Below the pieces are notes generated by a model, which saw only the letters and a list, made by a program, of their open reading frames with translations, was not told the DNA's origin and did not search any database. Below are positions 3,769-41,934 of a stretch of DNA of 53,017 nucleotides, one piece after another. The stretch's first letter is position 1. Every line of letters starts with the position of its first letter. The DNA is from an uncultured Candidatus Saccharibacteria bacterium. Its GTDB lineage: Bacteria; Patescibacteriota; Minisyncoccia; Minisyncoccales; CAZPAG01. The position numbers and the translations under genes are program-made. Location of the stretch: contig CAZPAG010000002.1 in the NCBI GenBank assembly GCA_964584545.1, forward strand, positions 1 through 53,017, given 5' to 3'.

Positions 3769-4566
3769 TTATCTGAATTCGTAGGTAATGCTTACTGTTG
3801 CTTCTATTTTATTCTCTCCCGTCTGTATCTGAGGAACAGAATCTCCTCCTCCCATGCCGACTGCTTTTGCCGAATAAAGGGCCTCTGGATAATTATATGC
3901 TCCGCTTTCGCTGTAGCTCACTATTCTGACTATTTTTACCCCTAATTGCTTGGCCAATGCCTCAGCTTTAGCCTTTACCTTGTCAATTGCTTCTTCCCTG
4001 GCCTGACTCTTGAGGTCGTCTTCATTCTCAATTGTGAATTGCAAGTCTCCTACCTGATTCGCTCCGTTATCAGTAGCTCCCTGGATAATTTCTCCCACCT
4101 TTTCCAAATCCCTGATTTTAACTTGCAAAGACTGGGTTATTTGGTACCCCGTTAAAACCCTTTTACCGTCAGGACAAGGATAGTAGCCGCAGCTAACGGC
4201 GCTTTGATACTCATAAACCGGTGAGATATAAAAGTTAACCGTTTTCATGTCTTTATCCTCGACGCCGTTATCCCCAACCGATTTGATAATAGCGTTCATT
4301 TTTTCGGTATTGTCGCTCATGGCCTCTGCCACTGTTTTCTTTTCGCTTACCACAGAAAGAGTGGTTACGGCCAAATCAGGTTTTGAGTAGACTTCCCCCG
4401 TATCAGAAATGGTGAAAGCGTTCCTAATGTCCGAGGTTTCTCCTATATATCTGCTCTCCTTAATTTTGTTGAGGGTCAGCACTCCTATATATGCGGTTAA
4501 AACTATTAAAGGGATGGCAATTAGCCAACAACAGTATTTATTTTCCTTTAAACATTGAATATCCAT
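3769..4566 (-). CDS. SIMPL/DUF541-family secreted or membrane-anchored protein
   Basis: 265-aa ORF with an N-terminal TM helix. TGEVYSKPDLAVTTLSV...GYQITQSLQVKIRDLEKVGEII...QAREEAIDKVKAKAEALAKQLG is typical of the SIMPL domain. Confidence 0.7.
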   Translation of the reverse strand: MDIQCLKENKYCCWLIAIPLIVLTAYIGVLTLNKIKESRYIGETSDIRNAFTISDTGEVYSKPDLAVTTLSVVSEKKTVAEAMSDNTEKMNAIIKSVGDNGVEDKDMKTVNFYISPVYEYQSAVSCGYYPCPDGKRVLTGYQITQSLQVKIRDLEKVGEIIQGATDNGANQVGDLQFTIENEDDLKSQAREEAIDKVKAKAEALAKQLGVKIVRIVSYSESGAYNYPEALYSAKAVGMGGGDSVPQIQTGENKIEATVSITYEFR

Positions 4567-4587: not shown

Positions 4588-5247
4588 TTATTTCTCGACC
4601 TTTATTTTTACCCACCTATATTTCTTAAACTGGTCCTTGAAAAATCTGAATCGTTTATATCCTAAAGAAACTAAAATATCTTCAACACCCTTTCTCTGCA
4701 GAGGGTCAATTTCAAGATATATTATACCATTATTTTTCAAAAAATTTCCACCCTCCTTCAAAAGTCTTCTAATGTAAAATAGTCCTTTTTCTCCTCCGAA
4801 TAACGCCCTGCCTGGTTCATATTTTAGGACGGACGGCTGGACCTCCTTTATCCTGTTTCTATCAACGTAAGGAGGATTGGCAAAAATATAGTCATACTTT
4901 CTGCCTTTTAATCCTTTAAACAGGTTTGATTTAATAACCCTGTATCTTGCAGGAGATATTTTGTTTAATTTCAAATTAATTTTTATCTGTTTTATCGCTT
5001 TTTCGTCAATATCAACAAAATCAACAGAGCTTTTTTTAGTTTTGATGTTCTTTAACAGAGAGACTCCTATACATCCAGACCCTGAAAAAACATCCAATAT
5101 TCTTATTGTCCGTCCATCCCCCATCTCTCTTCTGGTTTTCTTCACCCAAAATTCAGTCTCGGCCCTGGGAATAAAAGTTTTTTCTGACAAATCAATCTTG
5201 CAATTCAAAAATCTCGTTCTCCCTCTTTTGTACTCAACCGGAATCAT
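4588..5247 (-). CDS. prmC: HemK/PrmC-type protein N5-glutamine methyltransferase (short form)
   Basis: SAM-binding motif ILDVFSGSGCIG and the NPPY motif in FANPPYVD. It lacks the usual N-terminal helical domain. Confidence 0.7.
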   Translation of the reverse strand: MIPVEYKRGRTRFLNCKIDLSEKTFIPRAETEFWVKKTRREMGDGRTIRILDVFSGSGCIGVSLLKNIKTKKSSVDFVDIDEKAIKQIKINLKLNKISPARYRVIKSNLFKGLKGRKYDYIFANPPYVDRNRIKEVQPSVLKYEPGRALFGGEKGLFYIRRLLKEGGNFLKNNGIIYLEIDPLQRKGVEDILVSLGYKRFRFFKDQFKKYRWVKIKVEK

Positions 5248-15086: not shown

Positions 15087-15605
15087 TTATTTTGTTTTAC
15101 TTATGGCATTTAACGCCACGATCAGACCTTTAATGTTTCCTTGTAAAACACTTACAAAGTTTGAAACTGGGGCAGAGACCGTCCCTACGAATCTGGCCAG
15201 CAATTCCTTTCTGCCAGGAAGCTTGGCTAATTCAATCATTCTGTCTGTCTCAAAAAACTTGTTCTCTAAAAATCCACCTAAAATTTTAACGTTTTTATTC
15301 TCCTGTGAAAACTGCCAGACGGTTTTTGCCGGAGCTATTTCATCTTTATAACCAAAGACTATGGCTATCTCTCCTGCCATCTTTTTAAAATCAATGTCTA
15401 TCCCCTCTTTTTTGAAAGCTAAACTGAGTAAGGTTTTCTTAGCCACTTTTAAACTATCACCGGCTGCTTTTATCTTCTTCCTTAAATTGGAAAAATCCTT
15501 TACTTTTAGTCCGGTAAAGTCAAAGAAGACCACCGCCTTTTGGCTCTTCATTTTTTCTTTTAAATCCTCTACTATTTCTTGTTTTTGCTGTTTTGTTTGC
15601 GGCAT
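15087..15605 (-). CDS. rplJ: ribosomal protein L10
   Basis: [52 protein letters not shown]. It lies immediately upstream of rplL. Confidence 0.95.
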
Positions 15606-15606
15606 A

Positions 15607-15737
15607 CCCCGTTAGAAGTCTGTCTTAGAGTAATATATTTCTAATTAAACTTTAAACAGATCTTCTTATTATTGCCCTGTTATTCCCGAAGCATTAAATT
15701 TTTCCTGAAAATTTTATGCCAAGGACTTCTAACGGGG
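15607..15737 (-). promoter_or_regulatory. structured rplJ leader (long-range helix ending 1 nt before the start codon)
   Basis: Perfect 14-bp inverted repeat ccccgttagaagtc (15607-15620) / gacttctaacgggg (15724-15737) enclosing 103 nt. Confidence 0.45.
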
Positions 15738-15892
15738 CATATTTATGTAAATTAAACAAAAAACGGCTGCTTATGCAGACGAATACAACAAAAAGTATAA
15801 CCTTTTTATTTTATCCTCGGCAGGGCTTACAGAATGCCTGCTGTCTGCAGATGTACTAAGTATATATTCTTTAAATTTTATGTCAAGAGCTG

Positions 15893-22631: not shown

Positions 22632-22662
22632 ATTTTTATAATTTTTAATTTTAATTAAAAAC

Positions 22663-22705
22663 TGACAGGGTTCCCGCGCATACATCACATTTGAAGCGCG
22701 GGATG
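22663..22705 (-). repeat. family-1 element: GC hairpin plus GGGAACCCTG box
   Basis: Minus sense reads CATCCCGCGC-16 nt-GCGCGGGAACCCTGTCA, then 30 nt of A/T, then the ATG of rpmG. Confidence 0.6.
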
Positions 22706-22713
22706 TATATATG

Positions 22714-22908: not shown

Positions 22909-23577
22909 TTATTTTTCAATGGCTTTCCCCCGTTTTCCTCTCCATTCCTGAATATTCTTATGATGCCCGGAAATCAGCAATTTGGGCACTTTCCAATAAA
23001 CTCCTTTTTTCGGGGAAAAAACTTCCGGCCTGGTATAATGCGGATATTCGATAAAACCCTTGTTTTTGGTTATTCTTTCTTTTAAAAGCTGAGGTTTGCC
23101 CAAGACTCCGGGAACCAATCTTGCCACTGTTTCAATAACAATCATTGAAGGCAATTCTCCGCCCATCAAATCATATTCCCCTATTGATAATTCCATATCG
23201 GCTACATTCTTTGCCACTCTTTCATCAACCCCTTCGTATCTGCCGCAAACCATAACGACTTTATCCAATTTTGAAAGATTATAGGCTATTTGTTGATTAA
23301 ATTTCTTACCCCGCGGAGTAAATAGAATAACTTTAGCCTTTTTGCCCTTTTTTATCTCTTTAACTGCCTTATATATCGGTTCAACCTTCAAAACCATACC
23401 TAATCCCCCTCCATAAGGCCTGTCATCAACCGTCTTGTGCCTGTCTTTGGTCCATTTTCTCAGATTATGGACGTTAATCTTAACCAGCTTCTTTTTCTGG
23501 GCCCGGGCAATAAGACTCTCCTTCAGATAAGAGCTGAACATCTCCGGGAATATGGTAATAATATCGAAATTTAACAT
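22909..23577 (-). CDS. trmD: tRNA (guanine37-N1)-methyltransferase
   Basis: MLNFDIITIFPEMF..., DDRPYGGGLGMV, MVCGRYEGVDERV, SIGEYDLMGGELP. The start is moved to ATG 23577. Confidence 0.95.
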   Translation of the reverse strand: MLNFDIITIFPEMFSSYLKESLIARAQKKKLVKINVHNLRKWTKDRHKTVDDRPYGGGLGMVLKVEPIYKAVKEIKKGKKAKVILFTPRGKKFNQQIAYNLSKLDKVVMVCGRYEGVDERVAKNVADMELSIGEYDLMGGELPSMIVIETVARLVPGVLGKPQLLKERITKNKGFIEYPHYTRPEVFSPKKGVYWKVPKLLISGHHKNIQEWRGKRGKAIEK

Positions 23578-23650
23578 GCAAATGTAGTGAGCACCCCGCC
23601 CTCTAAGCATAAGTAAAATAATACATTTAGCATAGAGGGCGGGGTTTCGT
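23578..23650 (-). repeat. family-2 element, miniature (ORF-less) copy
   Basis: Minus sense reads cgaaACCCCGCCCTCTATGC-taaATGTATTATtttacttat-GCTTAGAGGGCGGGGTGCTCACTACATTTGC, then the ATG of trmD. Confidence 0.8.
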
Positions 23651-23661
23651 TCCTCAAAACG

Positions 23662-23695
23662 AAAACCGCGCTACCAGTAATGATAGCACGGTTTT
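23662..23695 (-). terminator. terminator-like hairpin after the KH-protein gene
   Basis: Minus sense reads AAAACCGTGCTATCA-TTAC-TGGTAGCGCGGTTTT, followed by CGTTTTG. Confidence 0.5.
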
Positions 23696-23712
23696 CTGAT
23701 TTCTGTAAAATC

Positions 23713-24027: not shown

Positions 24028-24131
24028 ATTCTTTCAGTATATATTCATTTCTAGTAGCCCGACCTTTCAGCGACTCTCTCAAACAATAATCAATAATGCG
24101 GGAGAATCTGATAAAGTTGCTACTAATTAAT

Positions 24132-24159
24132 ATTCTATTAATTATTGGGTCTTTGTCAA
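24132..24159 (-). promoter_or_regulatory. sigma70-type promoter candidate for the KH-protein gene
   Basis: Minus sense reads TTGACA - 16 nt - TAGAAT. It is preceded by a long imperfect hairpin at 24164-24225 (CCCAATAAG/CTTATTGGG outer stem, CAAGGAAAAC/GTTTCCTTG inner stem). Confidence 0.45.
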
Positions 24160-24269
24160 GCTGCCCAATAAGCTGCCAAGGAAACAAGGAGAGAGATTTA
24201 TGTTTTCCTTGACAACTTATTGGGTAGGAACGAGGGATCATTAAGTCATAGACTCTCCCCCTCGCTCCT

Positions 24270-24470
24270 TTACTTTTCAGTAAGCTTTTCAAAAGCTTCT
24301 CTGAATACGGACTCATACCAAGGGCGGTAACAAACCAGTATCTGGTCTTCGCCAAGCACTAATTTTGTTGGCTTTACGCCAAGCTCTTTTTCGACTGCGT
24401 CGATGGCTTGGTTCATTTTATCGAAATCCGCCCTTTCTAAAGTAATTACCGCATCTGGTTGGATTCCCAT
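24270..24470 (-). CDS. hypothetical 66-aa protein (island gene)
   Basis: AGGAGG lies 7 nt upstream of the ATG. MGIQPDAVITLERADFDKMNQAIDAVEKELG.... I recognise no family. Confidence 0.55.
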   Translation of the reverse strand: MGIQPDAVITLERADFDKMNQAIDAVEKELGVKPTKLVLGEDQILVCYRPWYESVFREAFEKLTEK

Positions 24471-24630
24471 CCGTTTGCCTCCTTTGGATTCATTCTTTTC
24501 ATGACGCCGAACTGGCTATAATTTATTTGATTAACACTAATACGTCTAATCTACATAAAATAAATGTTTAATTATAACCACTTCGTCGCCATGAAATCCC
24601 ATATTTAATTTTTAAAATTATTAAGTAGAT

Positions 24631-24651
24631 TGTTGAGGCCAGGCCTCAACA
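24631..24651. repeat. island hairpin H1 (TGTTGAGG...CCTCAACA)
   Basis: tgttgaggcc-a-ggcctcaaca. It belongs to the same family as H2 at 25528-25550. Confidence 0.6.
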
Positions 24652-24690
24652 GATCCTCAAAGAATTCTCAAAGAGCCAATTATCCATTTA

Positions 24691-24771
24691 TTAGCTAATA
24701 ACTTTTTTACAAACTAGTAAATGGAAGGTAAGTAAAAATATAATGATACGATCGTTAATTATTGCAATCAT
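24691..24771 (-). CDS. possible 26-aa hydrophobic peptide
   Basis: MIAIINDRIIIFLLTFHLLVCKKVIS. The start codon lies inside the 44-nt loop of a perfect 9-bp stem GAAGGTAAG/CTTACCTTC (24724-24732 / 24776-24784). The call is speculative. Confidence 0.25.
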   Translation of the reverse strand: MIAIINDRIIIFLLTFHLLVCKKVIS

Positions 24772-24801
24772 ATCTCTTACCTTCTTTGAAAGTCTCTATG
24801 C

Positions 24802-24987
24802 CTAGGCCCAGATTAAGGTTTTGACCTGCTTGAGATGCTCGACTGCTTGGTCGAATTGTCCGAGCCGAAAATGATGCCGAGCTTTCTTAAACTCGTCTGA
24901 CAGATAAAAATTTAACTTTTCATCTGCTTTTTCGATCTCTTTTTGAAAAAAATCTTCCAATTTTCTTTCCCTCTCTTCGGTCTTCAT
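24802..24987 (-). CDS. hypothetical 61-aa helical protein (single TPR-like hairpin?)
   Basis: AAGGAGG lies 4 nt upstream of the ATG. ...FKKARHHFRLGQFDQAVEHLKQV. Confidence 0.55.
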   Translation of the reverse strand: MKTEERERKLEDFFQKEIEKADEKLNFYLSDEFKKARHHFRLGQFDQAVEHLKQVKTLIWA

Positions 24988-25002
24988 GATACCTCCTTAA
25001 TT

Positions 25003-25088
25003 TACTCGCTTTTCATAGCGGCGAGATGCCCTCCTGCTGTAGAATGCTACCGAAGGACATTTCGCCGTTATGAAAACTATGAAAAGAA
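25003..25088 (-). repeat. 86-nt structured leader R1
   Basis: 84/86 identical to R2. Minus sense has a 10-bp stem CTTTTCATAG/CTATGAAAAG, an inner stem CGGCGA/TCGCCG and an apical hairpin GTAG-CATT-CTAC. It ends 8 nt before the SD. Confidence 0.8.
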
Positions 25089-25151
25089 TTTCTTTCTACT
25101 TCCACAAATTTCATCCTGAGCTTGTCGAATGGATAAAACCTCTGGAAGTAT

Positions 25152-25173
25152 GGGAAGTCGAAACCGACTTCCC
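25152..25173 (-). terminator. hairpin after the zinc-ribbon gene
   Basis: GGGAAGTCG-GTTT-CGACTTCCC (9 bp). No clear U-run follows. Confidence 0.4.
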
Positions 25174-25193
25174 CTCGAGTAGTGAGGAGGTGG

Positions 25194-25391
25194 CTACTGT
25201 TCAGGGCAACCCTGCCGATTACCGCAGTTACCGCAGAACTTGGCACCGATAGGGATTTCTACCCTACAGGCCTCGCATTCCTTGGTGCCGTACAACGGCT
25301 TTCCACATGTTCGACACGTAACCCTATTCTCGTGGTTAAAAGTCCCGCAGGCGACGCATTGGACAAACTTATCTGGCTTAATTTCAGGCAT
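25194..25391 (-). CDS. double zinc-ribbon protein (65 aa)
   Basis: Four CxxC pairs: CVAC..CRTC..CEAC..CGNC. AAGGAGG lies 8 nt upstream of ATG 25391. Confidence 0.65.
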   Translation of the reverse strand: MPEIKPDKFVQCVACGTFNHENRVTCRTCGKPLYGTKECEACRVEIPIGAKFCGNCGNRQGCPEQ

Positions 25392-25411
25392 GAACAATGC
25401 CTCCTTGCTAA

Positions 25412-25497
25412 TACTCGCTTTTCATAGCGGCGAGATGCCCTCCTGATGTAGAATACTACCGAAGGACATTTCGCCGTTATGAAAACTATGAAAAGAA
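25412..25497 (-). repeat. 86-nt structured leader R2
   Basis: See R1. The two differences fall in the apical loop and in an unpaired segment. Confidence 0.8.
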
Positions 25498-25527
25498 CTT
25501 TTTTACGCCTTAATTTATAAATATAGC

Positions 25528-25550
25528 TTGTTGAGGTCAATCCTCAACAA
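25528..25550. repeat. island hairpin H2
   Basis: TTGTTGAGG-tcaat-CCTCAACAA. Confidence 0.6.
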
Positions 25551-25687
25551 ATCTACAACGAATCTATTACTCTTATAAACTAAGGAGTAAAGGAGATGGA
25601 TGAATGCGTAGATTTTATTTCCACCCATCTCCTATAATGGACGAGATTTTTATAGCGGTGCTCATCCCACCGCTTCTCCCGAGGGTT

Positions 25688-25816
25688 TTAATTATCTTCT
25701 GGAGATTTTTTCCCCGCATCTTCTGCTGACTGACATACGGTGCCAGTTACCCCAGGGCAGAAGACCGGATTGGATCTTCGCCAGAAAACTGGCAGAACCT
25801 CTTTAAAATTTTCCAT
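25688..25816 (-). CDS. hypothetical 42-aa Cys-containing peptide
   Basis: GAGGAGG lies 8 nt upstream of ATG 25816. MENFKEVLPVFWRRSNPVFCPGVTGTVCQSAEDAGKKSPEDN. The longer ORF-track start is rejected. Confidence 0.45.
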   Translation of the reverse strand: MENFKEVLPVFWRRSNPVFCPGVTGTVCQSAEDAGKKSPEDN

Positions 25817-25991
25817 CTTATTTACCTCCTCAGAGACGATAGCACTCTCTGGTCTCTGAGAAGGTAAAATATTACTTAAAGAACTTTTTGAATTTCCCAT
25901 CTTTCAGCTCACAATCTCTTATGAGCTGGAATATAGGGGGAAGAGTCAAACTTCTCCCCGTTATGCTCCCGGTTTTACCCGGGAACCTGAT

Positions 25992-26099
25992 TTAGATGAT
26001 AGTGATGATACCCATCACGATAAGCATTGACGCAGTGAACATGATTCCAGTGACTGCCAGTCCAAACGCGCAGAATCCCGTGATAAGATTGTTTTTCAT
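25992..26099 (-). CDS. possible 35-aa hydrophobic membrane peptide
   Basis: MKNNLITGFCAFGLAVTGIMFTASMLIVMGIITII. GGGAG lies 4 nt upstream of the ATG. It sits at the end of a roughly 145-nt structured leader from a near-consensus promoter. Confidence 0.4.
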   Translation of the reverse strand: MKNNLITGFCAFGLAVTGIMFTASMLIVMGIITII

Positions 26100-26140
26100 T
26101 AAACTCCCTCTTTTTAATAAAATGTGCTTATATAAAGCCG

Positions 26141-26169
26141 AAAAGGCAACTCCCTTGGAGAGAGTTGCC
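26141..26169 (-). terminator. attenuator-like terminator hairpin inside the leader
   Basis: Minus sense reads GGCAACTCTC-TCCAA-GGGAGTTGCC followed by TTTTCGGCTTT. Confidence 0.5.
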
Positions 26170-26187
26170 TAACGGCATATATTTCTT

Positions 26188-26231
26188 GAAAATATCGATA
26201 TCTTCTCTCCTGTTAAAATATCGACATTTTC
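26188..26231. promoter_or_regulatory. two 18-bp near-palindromic operator-like sites
   Basis: GAAAATATCGATATCTTC (26188-26205) and TAAAATATCGACATTTTC (26214-26231). They share 15/18 positions, their centres are 26 bp apart, and they lie downstream of the -10 element. Confidence 0.5.
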
Positions 26232-26251
26232 TCTCTCTCCTCTATGCCCGT

Positions 26252-26279
26252 ATTATAGCATATATCAAAGATTTGTCAA
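26252..26279 (-). promoter_or_regulatory. near-consensus sigma70 promoter with extended -10
   Basis: Minus sense reads TTGACA - 16 nt (ending in TGC) - TATAAT. Confidence 0.6.
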
Positions 26280-26292
26280 GTATTTAGAACAT

Positions 26293-26323
26293 AAAAACGA
26301 AATCCCGCGGTTTTAGCGCGAAA
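26293..26323 (-). terminator. terminator candidate after rpsP
   Basis: Minus sense reads TTTCGCG-CTAAAAC-CGCGGGA, then TTTCGTTTTT. Confidence 0.45.
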
Positions 26324-26348
26324 TCCATAAAACGAGATCTAATTTGGC

Positions 26349-26777
26349 CTATTTCGGTTCTTCAGCCTTAACCTCTTCGCTTTTTACCTCCTCTGCCGGC
26401 TTTGCTTCCTCGGGAGTCGCTTCAATTTTTACCTCTTCTTCCGGTTTTTCCTCTACAGGCTTAGCTGCCACCGGAGCTGCTTCAACCGGCTTTGCTTCTG
26501 CTTTCTTCTTTGATTTCTTTTGTTTTGGTATCTTTTTCCCCTCAACTATTTTCTCTGAAACCAATAAATTAAAAACCGTGGGAGAAGGTTTAGCTCCAAC
26601 TGACATCCAGTATTTAATTCTGTCCTGCTTCAAAACCTTTTCTTTTGTGGTGGGATTCCAAAAACCAACCTCTTCCGTAAAGCGGCCCGCTCTTGTCGGA
26701 TTTCTTTTATCAGCAACAACTATTTTGAAAGAAGGCTGATTTGTTTTACCTACGCGAAAAAATCTGATTACTAACAT
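26349..26777 (-). CDS. rpsP: ribosomal protein S16 with Lys/Glu/Ala/Pro-rich C-terminal tail
   Basis: MLVIRFFRVGKTNQPSFKIVVADKRNPTRAGRFTEEVGFWNP. Confidence 0.95.
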   Translation of the reverse strand: MLVIRFFRVGKTNQPSFKIVVADKRNPTRAGRFTEEVGFWNPTTKEKVLKQDRIKYWMSVGAKPSPTVFNLLVSEKIVEGKKIPKQKKSKKKAEAKPVEAAPVAAKPVEEKPEEEVKIEATPEEAKPAEEVKSEEVKAEEPK

Positions 26778-27050
26778 GCGAATGTAATGAGCACCCCGCC
26801 CTCTAAGCTATAATTCTTTTCTTGAGGGCACGCCAGGCGCTCCCATAATATTTTAATTTTCTTTCTCTCGACCTTGCTAATTTCTCTAAGGAATAAGATT
26901 CGTAATAAACTATTTGAAATTTATTCTTAGATTTATGTTGTTTTATTCTTTTTACTAAGTCTTTGGTGCATCCAATATAAAATTCATTATTCCTTTCCAG
27001 TTTTAAAATGTAGACATAATACATAGCTGCATAGAGGGCGGGGGTTTTCG
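26778..27050 (-). mobile_element. family-2 element, full-length copy: GIY-YIG ORF framed by inverted repeats
   Basis: Arms gcaccccgccctctaagc (26791-26808) and gcatagagggcggggg (27029-44). The same flanks occur in the 73-nt copy at 23578-23650. Confidence 0.7.
26803..27024 (-). CDS. GIY-YIG nuclease family protein (73 aa)
   Basis: MYYVYILKLERNNEFYIGCTKDLVKRIKQH...RERKLK carries the GIY / YIG / R..H / E pattern. The start is moved to ATG 27024. The TAG stop lies inside the inverted repeat. Confidence 0.8.
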   Translation of the reverse strand: MYYVYILKLERNNEFYIGCTKDLVKRIKQHKSKNKFQIVYYESYSLEKLARSRERKLKYYGSAWRALKKRIIA

Positions 27051-27067
27051 CCTGTCGGCTCAAAATT

Positions 27068-32851: not shown

Positions 32852-32857
32852 AAAAAT

Positions 32858-32903
32858 ATGCATCCCGCGCGATTAAGATGATTTATGCGCGGGAGCCCTG
32901 TCT
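32858..32903 (+). repeat. family-1 element: GC hairpin plus GGGAGCCCTG box
   Basis: ATGCATCCCGCGC-16 nt-GCGCGGGAGCCCTGTCT, then 26 nt of A/T, then the ATG of thrS. Confidence 0.6.
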
Positions 32904-32926
32904 ATTTGATTTTATTTCATAAAATT

Positions 32927-41758: not shown

Positions 41759-41772
41759 AATATTATGAAAAT

Positions 41773-41863
41773 TGACAGGGCTCCCGCGCATATATGCCGA
41801 AAGCATTCAAGGTTCTCGCCGAAGGAGAGGTTCTTATATTACATTAATTGCACGGGATGCATA
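41773..41863 (-). repeat. family-1 element with a 60-nt insertion in the hairpin loop
   Basis: Minus sense reads ATGCATCCCGTGC-[60 nt containing a family-3 repeat]-GCGCGGGAGCCCTGTCAATTTTCATAATATT-ATG. Confidence 0.6.
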
Positions 41864-41934
41864 ATTTAATTCTAACAAATTATATTATAAATAAAAAGAA
41901 GCCCTTAGGCTTCACAATTTTATATATTATAAAT

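Follow-up and report, generated by a model that had tools for sequence, protein, structure and literature searches.

A short hairpin element before trmD of a Saccharibacteria bacterium as a probable non-autonomous member of a GIY-YIG nuclease element family in Patescibacteria

Free-standing homing genes of the GIY-YIG superfamily, such as those for the Seg proteins of phage T4, and the intron-borne gene for I-TevI are selfish nuclease genes. Repetitive extragenic palindromic (REP) sequences and REPINs, with their RAYT genes, are GC-rich extragenic palindromes in many copies, and the enzyme of that system is an HUH/Y1 transposase. The Correia elements of Neisseria are bacterial miniature inverted-repeat transposable elements (MITEs), which are short, non-coding and inverted-repeat-bearing, are often situated in co-transcribed 5′ leaders and form hairpins in the mRNA. 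The function of the UPF0213 proteins, another group related to the nuclease treated here, is unknown. In rRNA genes of the candidate phyla radiation (CPR), one report describes GIY-YIG open reading frames (ORFs) within insertions that are not introns of group I or II; these insertions are scattered over sites of low conservation, in many cases where a stem-loop has its top or its base (PMC11270868). The present analysis concerns 53,017 nucleotides (nt) of contig CAZPAG010000002.1 (GenBank assembly GCA_964584545.1) from an uncultured Candidatus Saccharibacteria bacterium, hereafter the window, and in particular a short hairpin element directly in front of trmD. This stretch is probably an ORF-less, non-autonomous copy of a small selfish mobile element family of the CPR/Patescibacteria. 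The autonomous form of the family encodes a nuclease, and its ORF-less forms are spread over many sites close to start codons. Loci outside the window are denoted by L numbers.

Members of the family share one layout, namely TTGA, a variable hairpin P1, GAAA, a near-invariant 13-bp GC-rich hairpin P2, a module P3 and the ATG of the host gene. The parts of the short copy and its immediate surroundings are as follows.

23578 to 23656, minus strand: short element, whole unit of 79 nt, without an ORF; homology with L116, L117 and L205 stops at 23657 and restarts at 23577
23646 to 23656, minus strand: left module, consisting of TGA, a degenerate P1 (G-GAA-C) and a GAA linker; corresponds to the family motif TTGA-[P1 hairpin]-GAAA
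23633 to 23645, minus strand: P2 left arm ACCCCGCCCTCTA, an exact inverted repeat of 23593-23605
23606 to 23632, minus strand: P2 loop of 27 nt (tgc taa ATGTATTAT tttactt at gct), whose ends tgc and gct lengthen the stem past a T.T mismatch
23618 to 23626, minus strand: ATGTATTAT, a 9-nt exact match to the first three codons (Met-Tyr-Tyr) of the GIY-YIG ORF
23593 to 23605, minus strand: P2 right arm TAGAGGGCGGGGT, pairing with 23633 to 23645
23578 to 23592, minus strand: right module P3, GCTCACTACATTTGC, whose final base is position -1 of trmD and whose outer two-base ends covary family-wide
22909 to 23577, minus strand: trmD, the host gene directly 3′ of the element (Pfam tRNA_m1G_MT, 5.7e-52)
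23680 to 23709, minus strand: promoter-like site TTTACA-18-TATCAT with TG, upstream of the element; a consensus match only, kept in relatives

On the minus strand the order at trmD is thus cgtttTGAGGAACGAA-ACCCCGCCCTCTA-tgctaaATGTATTATtttacttatgct-TAGAGGGCGGGGT-GCTCACTACATTTGC-ATG, with the start codon at 23577. The hairpin comprises 13 bp, the T.T mismatch and 2 further bp, and has a minimum free energy of -35.6 kcal/mol (z = -5.9). The nuclease is not encoded by this copy, in whose 27-nt loop ATGTATTAT is the sole trace of the ORF. If the promoter-like site upstream is real, the leader RNA of trmD would include the element. The longest ORF for trmD (22909-23610) begins at an ATG within the hairpin (ATGCTTAGAGGG..., 233 aa), and such an element-internal ATG can make automatic gene calls add 11 spurious residues to trmD.

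The second copy in the window is a full one and stands in front of rpsP.

26778 to 27062, minus strand: full element, whole unit of 285 nt; homology with relatives stops at 27063 and restarts at 26777
26803 to 27024, minus strand: GIY-YIG ORF, 73 aa plus stop (Pfam PF01541, 3.7e-11); the stop TAG (26803-26805) is formed by the first three bases of the right arm
27032 to 27045, minus strand: P2 left arm ACCCCCGCCCTCTA, with one C more than in the short copy
26793 to 26805, minus strand: P2 right arm TAGAGGGCGGGGT, the same as in the short copy
26778 to 26792, minus strand: P3 module GCTCATTACATTCGC, whose final base is position -1 of rpsP
26349 to 26777, minus strand: rpsP, the host gene 3′ of the full copy (Pfam Ribosomal_S16)

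Here the minus strand reads aatttTGAGCCGACAGGCGAAA-ACCCCCGCCCTCTA-tgcagct-ATG...(73 codons)...gct-TAGAGGGCGGGGT-GCTCATTACATTCGC-ATG. The initial annotation had recognised the short element as a miniature derivative of this full copy. Its sequence reads exactly as quoted there, and its right end at 23578 holds; the left end, which had been put at 23650, lies at 23656 according to BLAST breakpoints against relatives. The identity of 29 in 31 positions given for the left block is roughly right, with about 29-30 identical positions, but two small indels are needed to reach it. Conservation of the right arm with its flank was borne out, the right block GCTTAGAGGGCGGGGTGCTCAYTACATTYGCATGTTA being identical at 35 of 37 positions, ATGTTA included. 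It was also correct that conservation reaches the host ATG though rpsP and trmD differ, and the element's own 3′ module takes the place of 6-7 nt of host spacer. Chance likeness between GC-rich hairpins, for example terminators, in an AT-rich genome would be the simplest account of these two copies and can be regarded as refuted. The loops are indeed AT-rich, and short matches such as TTAT are at the level of chance (P = 0.61 in the test of the 3′ loop end); against this stand the right block just mentioned and an exact run of 15 nt in the left-arm region common to both copies, with 0.00 matches expected in shuffles, and about 95 further copies in other genomes. A 20-nt pattern from the right block has 2 matches in the window versus 0.00 expected. 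Moreover, the hairpin of the short copy is absent from the list of a terminator scan, having a loop of 27 nt and a tail, GCTCACTAC, with no T-run, and the promoter and terminator scan of the window listed nothing in P2 or P3. No third copy was found in the window with up to 3 mismatches allowed.

The wider family was collected from two sides. When the exact 18-mer TAGAGGGCGGGGTGCTCA was scanned against one-genome-per-species contigs amounting to 596 Gb, 114 genome stretches were matched; about 95 of these belong to AT-rich CPR genomes, and in every such case a left arm is suitably spaced from the match. About 17 matches lie in GC-rich non-CPR genomes without a partner arm, by estimate as many as chance would yield for an 18-mer in that amount of sequence. 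The second collection started from an alignment of eight GIY-YIG proteins, which was scanned against metagenome contigs, and 80 loci with ORF homologues were kept; at 74 of them the ORF stops within the right arm, TAG(A/G)GGGCGGGGT, with the left arm in place. A compensatory change in the stem, right-arm A to G matched by left-arm T to C, is found in L139, L155 and L156. Within Patescibacteria the hosts include Saccharibacteria and Staskawicz-, Nealson-, Jorgensen-, Wolfe-, Yanofsky-, Kuenen- and Brennerbacteria, and several genomes carry 3-7 copies on separate contigs. No match to the elements in the window or at 18 loci was obtained from Rfam, self-cleaving ribozymes included, at the gathering threshold, nor any between 23500 and 27150 at E values up to 10, and a full-text literature search found no description of this element. 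A phage origin was considered and rejected, the lone match on a viral contig being a chance match in GC-rich coding DNA. In L003 (4181-7331), from a member of the Jorgensenbacteria, the 16S rRNA gene holds a group I intron (Rfam RF00028, 76.9 bits) and is followed, about 600 nt further downstream, by a full GIY-YIG hairpin element.

The P2 loops of the family, 128 distinct ones in total, fall into four length classes with no loops between them and a single outlier of 382 nt: 22-27 nt (13 distinct loops), 37-40 nt (8), 69-81 nt with a mode of 75 (63) and 215-228 nt (43). Loops of the last class encode GIY-YIG proteins of 71-75 aa with the C-terminus ...KLKYYGSAWRALKKRI.A*, whose TAG stop lies in the right arm; in some ORF-bearing copies the start ATG falls at the arm junction (TCTATGC), and in ORF-bearing copies the ORF fills the P2 loop exactly. 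The orientation of a loop can be read from the T.T mismatch at the inner end of P2. In all 52 distinct ORF-bearing loops (52/52) the ORF is on the strand that this marker sets as 'tgc...gct', and only one of them, L186, is flipped relative to P1 and P3; among ORF-less loops 24 of 84 are flipped. The loops of 69-81 nt have no extra structure (mean z -0.27), and a promoter within them was rejected, a sigma70-like site facing the gene being present in 6 of 63 versus 7.9 expected from shuffles.

The modules on either side of P2 are hairpins in their own right. Between TTGA and GAAA, P1 stems range from 2 to 12 bp, and the covarying stems include GC/GC, GT/AC, GCC/GGC, GCT/AGC, GCCCGC/GCGGGC and GTCCCGC/GCGGGAC; the closing stem has a length of 2.5 as observed versus 0.5 in shuffles. 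P3 is either short (GCTCAYTWYRTTCGC or GCTTCA...TTCAGC) or a long AT-rich hairpin ending ...TGGC, and in the short form its opening dinucleotide pairs with the dinucleotide just before the ATG (GC/GC in 28, AC/GT in 4 and GT/AC in 1; P = 0.003). The two ends of the element, TGAG... and ...TTCGC, are not inverted copies of one another, and the inverted repeat of P2 is internal. Single genomes contain identical P2 cores with different P3 modules (e.g. L014, L029). Long-range pairing between the left and right flanks (TGAGC/GCTCA, GCGAA/TTCGC) was also considered, but the left flank is unchanged when the right flank changes, and this pairing was rejected because the local hairpins P1 and P3 account better for the covariation. 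The likeness to a hammerhead core, GA-[hairpin]-GAAA-[hairpin], noticed by eye, did not hold either: there is no CUGANGA box, and P2 is preceded by a variable number of A residues and followed in most cases by G. Counts of G.U-tolerant substitutions made by eye as a test of RNA versus DNA pairing were uninformative, the left arm being almost all C.

Most copies stand close to a start codon. An ORF on the same strand starts within 115 nt of 141 of the 157 oriented copies, and between P2 and the ATG lie 14-19 nt in 67 of the 113 distinct copies (mode 15), longer distances being found only with the long-hairpin P3. In a Pfam census of the 108 distinct proteins encoded downstream of elements, MraZ and S16 were most frequent (10 each), followed by L11 and S18 (5 each), MreB and S6 (4 each), RecA, L21 and FtsX (3 each), and L16 and Fpg (2 each); ORF-bearing copies cluster at rpsP and mraZ. 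A Shine-Dalgarno (SD)-like motif precedes 9 of 47 genes in the window, where leaders are usually short and AT-rich, and the 16S rRNA gene of L003, a related CPR genome, ends (4150-4260) with ...GGAUUAAUUAAA, without the CCUCC anti-SD. Two candidate signals inside the element were rejected: GGGGTG in the right arm as an SD-like motif, which is 14 nt from the ATG and sequestered in the stem in a largely SD-less genome, and TAYRTT in P3 as a -10 box, which is merely 3 nt from the ATG and thus too close.

These positions might suggest that the element is a cis-acting RNA of the host, that is, a processing, stability or translation signal of the 5′ leader which is kept by host selection and whose link to the nuclease is incidental. 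The strict sense orientation at position -1 of the starts of ribosomal-protein, mraZ, mreB and recA genes, the covariation of P1 and P3 and the extreme conservation of P2 would all agree with such a signal. We nevertheless regard it as very unlikely: the downstream genes have no common function that would call for joint regulation, the content of the loop flips and varies freely, Rfam gives no match at gathering or permissive thresholds, at two sites close relatives differ in whether they carry the element, and the element is much more alike between genomes than the genes around it.

The last two points come from the following comparisons. Four relatives of the window (L116, L117/118, L204 and L205/206) were found through TrmD homologues of 94-96% identity; their flanks are 85-97% identical at the nucleotide level and their gene order, nusB-rnc-rpsP-...-KH-trmD, is the same as in the window. 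The spacer between the KH gene and trmD is 62-65 nt in all four (...CGTTT-ATTTCT-ATG) versus 135 nt in the window, and that between rnc and rpsP is 12 nt in L116, L117/118 and L205 (GGTAAAATTT-AAAACAT-ATGTTAG) versus 290 nt in the window; the contig of L204 begins too near trmD to show the latter junction. By BLAST breakpoints, the short element replaces 6 nt and the full element 7 nt of the relatives' spacer before the ATG, and no direct repeat of at least 3 nt that could be a target-site duplication is present at either of the two occupied and empty sites compared. The whole unit is gained or lost as one piece, and where present it stands in place of 6-7 nt of AT-rich spacer ahead of the start codon. 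A gain in the lineage of the window is the simpler history, since the copies are missing from all four related lineages open to examination. The contigs L202 and L203 of the same strain also hold the short copy, which presumably came to the trmD leader of this strain recently.

At the rnc–rpsP site the element is absent from L116, L117 and L205 and present in the window, L122-L130, L162, L174 and others. The full element of the window is 93% identical at the nucleotide level to those of L122 and L125 at the same site, while the adjoining rnc and rpsP are only 71-77% identical between these genomes; in the nearest relatives, which are 85-90% identical to the window in these two genes, the site is empty. 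This distribution indicates that the element moves horizontally into the same site of diverged genomes.

The 73-aa product of the ORF matches Pfam PF01541 (GIY-YIG) with 43.6 bits against a cut-off of 22.6. Among homologues little or no variation is seen in the Y(V)Y and YIG columns, and R26, H30 and E42 (R27, H31 and E43 in the alignment) are invariant across 46 sequences and are likely to be the catalytic residues. Sequence matches in the PDB are the UPF0213 proteins BH0048 (1ZG2, 7.9e-8) and EF2693 (1YWL), followed by the catalytic domain of I-TevI and by Slx1. An AlphaFold (AF2) model built from the 46 homologues has a pLDDT of 94 and the order beta-beta-alpha-beta-alpha-alpha; with this model Foldseek retrieved 1ZG2 (E = 7e-4), Slx1 (TM 0.65-0.71, rmsd 1.5-2.1 A for the best-fitting chains) and I-TevI. 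No DNA-binding domain was detected in the 73-aa protein by Pfam, NCBIfam, PDB sequence or Foldseek searches, which found the catalytic domain only, and NCBIfam gave just a sub-threshold match to a group I intron endonuclease. The protein is accordingly predicted to be a GIY-YIG catalytic domain alone, of the UPF0213/Slx1 type. Public annotations name it 'excinuclease ABC subunit C' or 'GIY-YIG nuclease family protein', and in the window it was gene-called as an 86-aa protein (P0121) from an upstream TTG. A dN/dS of about 0.2 among 50 distinct ORFs, whose synonymous sites are saturated (median pS 0.69), shows that purifying selection acts on the nuclease gene. The P2 arms hardly vary and are far more conserved than the nuclease gene. 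In L109 (about 4730-5010) a full-length copy is frameshifted so that only the C-terminal 50 residues are in frame, and this ORF looks like a decaying nuclease gene.

How the short copy is related to ORF-bearing ones was the central claim of the initial annotation, which took it for the product of an internal deletion in the nuclease gene, with the first three codons of the ORF at one end of the loop and the last codon and stop, GCTTAG, at the other. The match of ATGTATTAT to the first codons is real, if modest when taken alone: in shuffles of the loop a 9-mer common with the ORF start has P = 0.013, and P = 0.0026 when a similar offset from the stem is required. The supposed remnant at the other end fell away, as the GC of GCTTAG pairs with the left-hand GC and its TAG is the start of the right arm, and the other similarity of the 3′ loop to the ORF end is at chance (P = 0.61, shuffles). 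The 13 distinct loops of 22-27 nt resemble the 5′ ends of ORFs at 10.5 of 14 positions versus 8.9 for their reverse complements (Wilcoxon P = 0.008) and also exceed shuffles in this likeness (P = 0.016), but in the 37-40-nt and 69-81-nt classes an end-anchored test gave no signal of an ORF remnant. A nhmmer profile of full copies gave no signal above shuffles when run against the short loops.

Short and full copies nonetheless share the P1, P2 and P3 modules and the T.T orientation marker, so that the short copy can be kept as an ORF-less relative of the GIY-YIG element; what does not stand is its origin by deletion of the neighbouring full copy. Its 27-nt loop is identical at 27 of 27 positions in L079 (before rpsF), L104 (before rpsF, inverted) and L168 (before another gene, inverted), whose P1 and P3 differ from those of the window at several positions. 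Because the same loop thus occurs at other genes and in other genomes, and in both orientations, the short copy is not a simple deletion of its neighbour. The 27-nt-loop core is, judging from these sequences, a non-autonomous lineage that spreads independently over several sites and genomes. For the 22-27-nt class, whose loops are similar to the beginning of the ORF, an ORF-bearing ancestor is the more economical assumption, and the 27-nt-loop lineage most likely arose once from an ORF-bearing copy. The loops of 69-81 nt, the commonest ORF-less class, have no remnant, and internal deletion therefore does not account for most short copies.

The same observations bear on a reversed order of events, in which the hairpin cassette P1-P2-P3 came first, the GIY-YIG gene is a later invader homing into P2 loops and short loops represent the uninvaded state. 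ORF-less copies far outnumber ORF-bearing ones in the DNA scan (about 84 versus 9, with 3 more cut by contig ends, among the 114 loci and the window), and the 37-40-nt and 69-81-nt loops are as remnant-free as uninvaded loops should be. That the ORF fills the loop exactly, and that one P2 core is found with different P1 and P3 modules, as exchange of cores between scaffolds would give, also fits. This order nevertheless appears rather unlikely to us. The 22-27-nt loops open like the ORF (ATGTAYTAT), at the same offset and only in the orientation set by the T.T mismatch, and as ATGTAYTAT encodes the first strand of the GIY motif, it is unlikely to have pre-existed by chance. In addition, the unit as a whole is absent from relatives at both window sites, and about 1 Mb of CPR loci yielded no scaffold that lacked P2.

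If the trmD stretch is a non-autonomous copy of a selfish element, its spread could proceed as follows. First, the nuclease would act either on the P2 palindrome, in its hairpin or cruciform form, or on a site that is still empty. Second, the cut would be repaired by copying the occupied copy, in the manner of homing or gene conversion, and ORF-less copies would be carried along in trans. Third, copies with the ORF would keep the sense orientation since they would depend on host read-through transcription, and an antisense ORF would lose expression. Every GC-rich base pairs inside the element's own hairpins, so that the transcribed element would be compact up to position -1 and would leave the host AUG usable in a largely SD-less genome; an AUG kept usable would account for the persistence of insertions flush with the start codons of essential genes.

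Several points weigh against this interpretation. The cleavage specificity, the repair pathway and the effect on translation are what we infer, and a 73-aa catalytic domain that appears to have no DNA-binding domain is unlike known sequence-specific homing endonucleases. Neither a target-site duplication nor a common target sequence was found that would account for the placement flush with the ATG. Loss of the ORF by deletion seems modestly supported, and for the 22-27-nt class alone. Since the DNA searches needed an exact 18-mer or a conserved peptide, the invariance of P2 is partly a matter of ascertainment; many loci come from metagenome-assembled genomes, and some taxon labels are unreliable. 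A more far-reaching proposal, which we put forward only tentatively, is that of a new class of mobile element, in which a minimal GIY-YIG nuclease resembling Slx1, with its gene in the loop of its own palindrome, would recognise an extruded hairpin or cruciform structure rather than a sequence. It would drive the copying of hairpin cassettes, with or without the gene, to positions before start codons, where they would replace the leaders of essential genes in non-SD bacteria, and loop flips and exchange of P2 cores would be by-products of nicking and repair.

With free-standing GIY-YIG homing genes the element has in common a selfish nuclease gene of that superfamily, a patchy occurrence at one site flanked by conserved genes, the existence of related genomes with the rnc–rpsP site occupied and with it empty, a closer relation between genomes (93%) than that of its flanks (71-77%) and the occurrence of degenerate copies (the frameshifted L109). 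Unlike such genes, it encodes a catalytic domain of 73 aa with no domain for a long asymmetric target, its gene is nested in the loop of a conserved palindrome, and its ORF-less copies lie flush with start codons at many unrelated sites. Like the REP/REPIN and RAYT systems, it consists of many-copy GC-rich extragenic palindromes with a gene between inverted repeat copies, and its non-autonomous copies presumably need the protein in trans; it differs from them in that the enzyme is a GIY-YIG nuclease, that there is no GTAG/CGTC tag, that sense copies stand upstream of start codons and that the family crosses many CPR lineages and is not bound to one host lineage. The short copies resemble MITEs in being non-coding, inverted-repeat-bearing and numerous, and leader-borne MITEs also in their position in 5′ leaders, where they would be transcribed with the gene and form hairpins in its mRNA. 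They depart from leader-borne MITEs in having no target-site duplication at the two occupied and empty comparisons, in having their inverted repeat, P2, between the asymmetric P1 and P3, and in that the autonomous partner encodes a GIY-YIG nuclease instead of a known transposase class. Among proteins, UPF0213 (BH0048, EF2693) and the nuclease domain of Slx1 are the best matches in sequence and fold. By analogy, the activity of Slx1 on branched and stem-loop DNA would fit an enzyme acting on a palindrome; the element's protein is shorter than UPF0213 proteins (73 versus about 95-105 aa) and has neither the RING nor a partner domain of Slx1. The insertions of PMC11270868 lie within rRNA genes, and the paper, as far as consulted, describes no flanking palindrome, ORF-less derivatives or start-codon placement for them; they may be related to this family. 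The element misses at least one defining feature of each of these systems, namely the DNA-binding domain of homing genes, the HUH transposase of REPIN/RAYT and the target duplication of MITEs, and is rated as belonging with selfish nuclease cassettes that have non-autonomous derivatives.

The window contains other repeats and a variable region. A second family of GC-rich palindromes is represented at 15606-15739 on the minus strand by CCCCGTTAGAAG, a loop of about 107 nt and CTTCTAACGGGG; a single base separates the right arm from the ATG at 15605, and TATG is found on both sides of the hairpin. On L119, a Nealsonbacteria contig, a relative occupies 4167-4305 at the KH–trmD site, where it immediately follows the same ...CGTTTTCGTTT. 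A third hairpin family (22659-22710, 32853-32907 and 41768-41867; CATCCCGCGC...GCGCGGGA(G/A)CCCTGTC, whose loops measure from about 14 to about 75 nt) is found close to the starts of genes, for instance before an L33-like ORF and at the start of a 593-aa ORF at 32885. Between rpsP and the KH gene, 24030-26350 is a 2.3-kb island of small ORFs, one of them a double zinc ribbon, with a 93-nt direct repeat (25003-25095 and 25412-25504) that is 96% identical. The island can be aligned only partly with close relatives and is thus a variable region inside a conserved operon.

CPR genomes are very small and tightly packed, with spacers of 6-12 nt at the sites described here, and the element shows how a parasite can persist there, between the stop codon of one gene and the start codon of the next, at ribosomal-protein, mraZ, mreB and recA genes. 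As repeats, the copies may break assemblies, and several loci end within or beside one. The nuclease is one of the smallest self-contained mobility-linked nuclease domains (73 aa), and together with the 13-bp palindrome, its presumed substrate, it makes a compact system for studying structure-specific DNA cleavage. The placement of the element is also a natural test of translation start in bacteria without SD signals.

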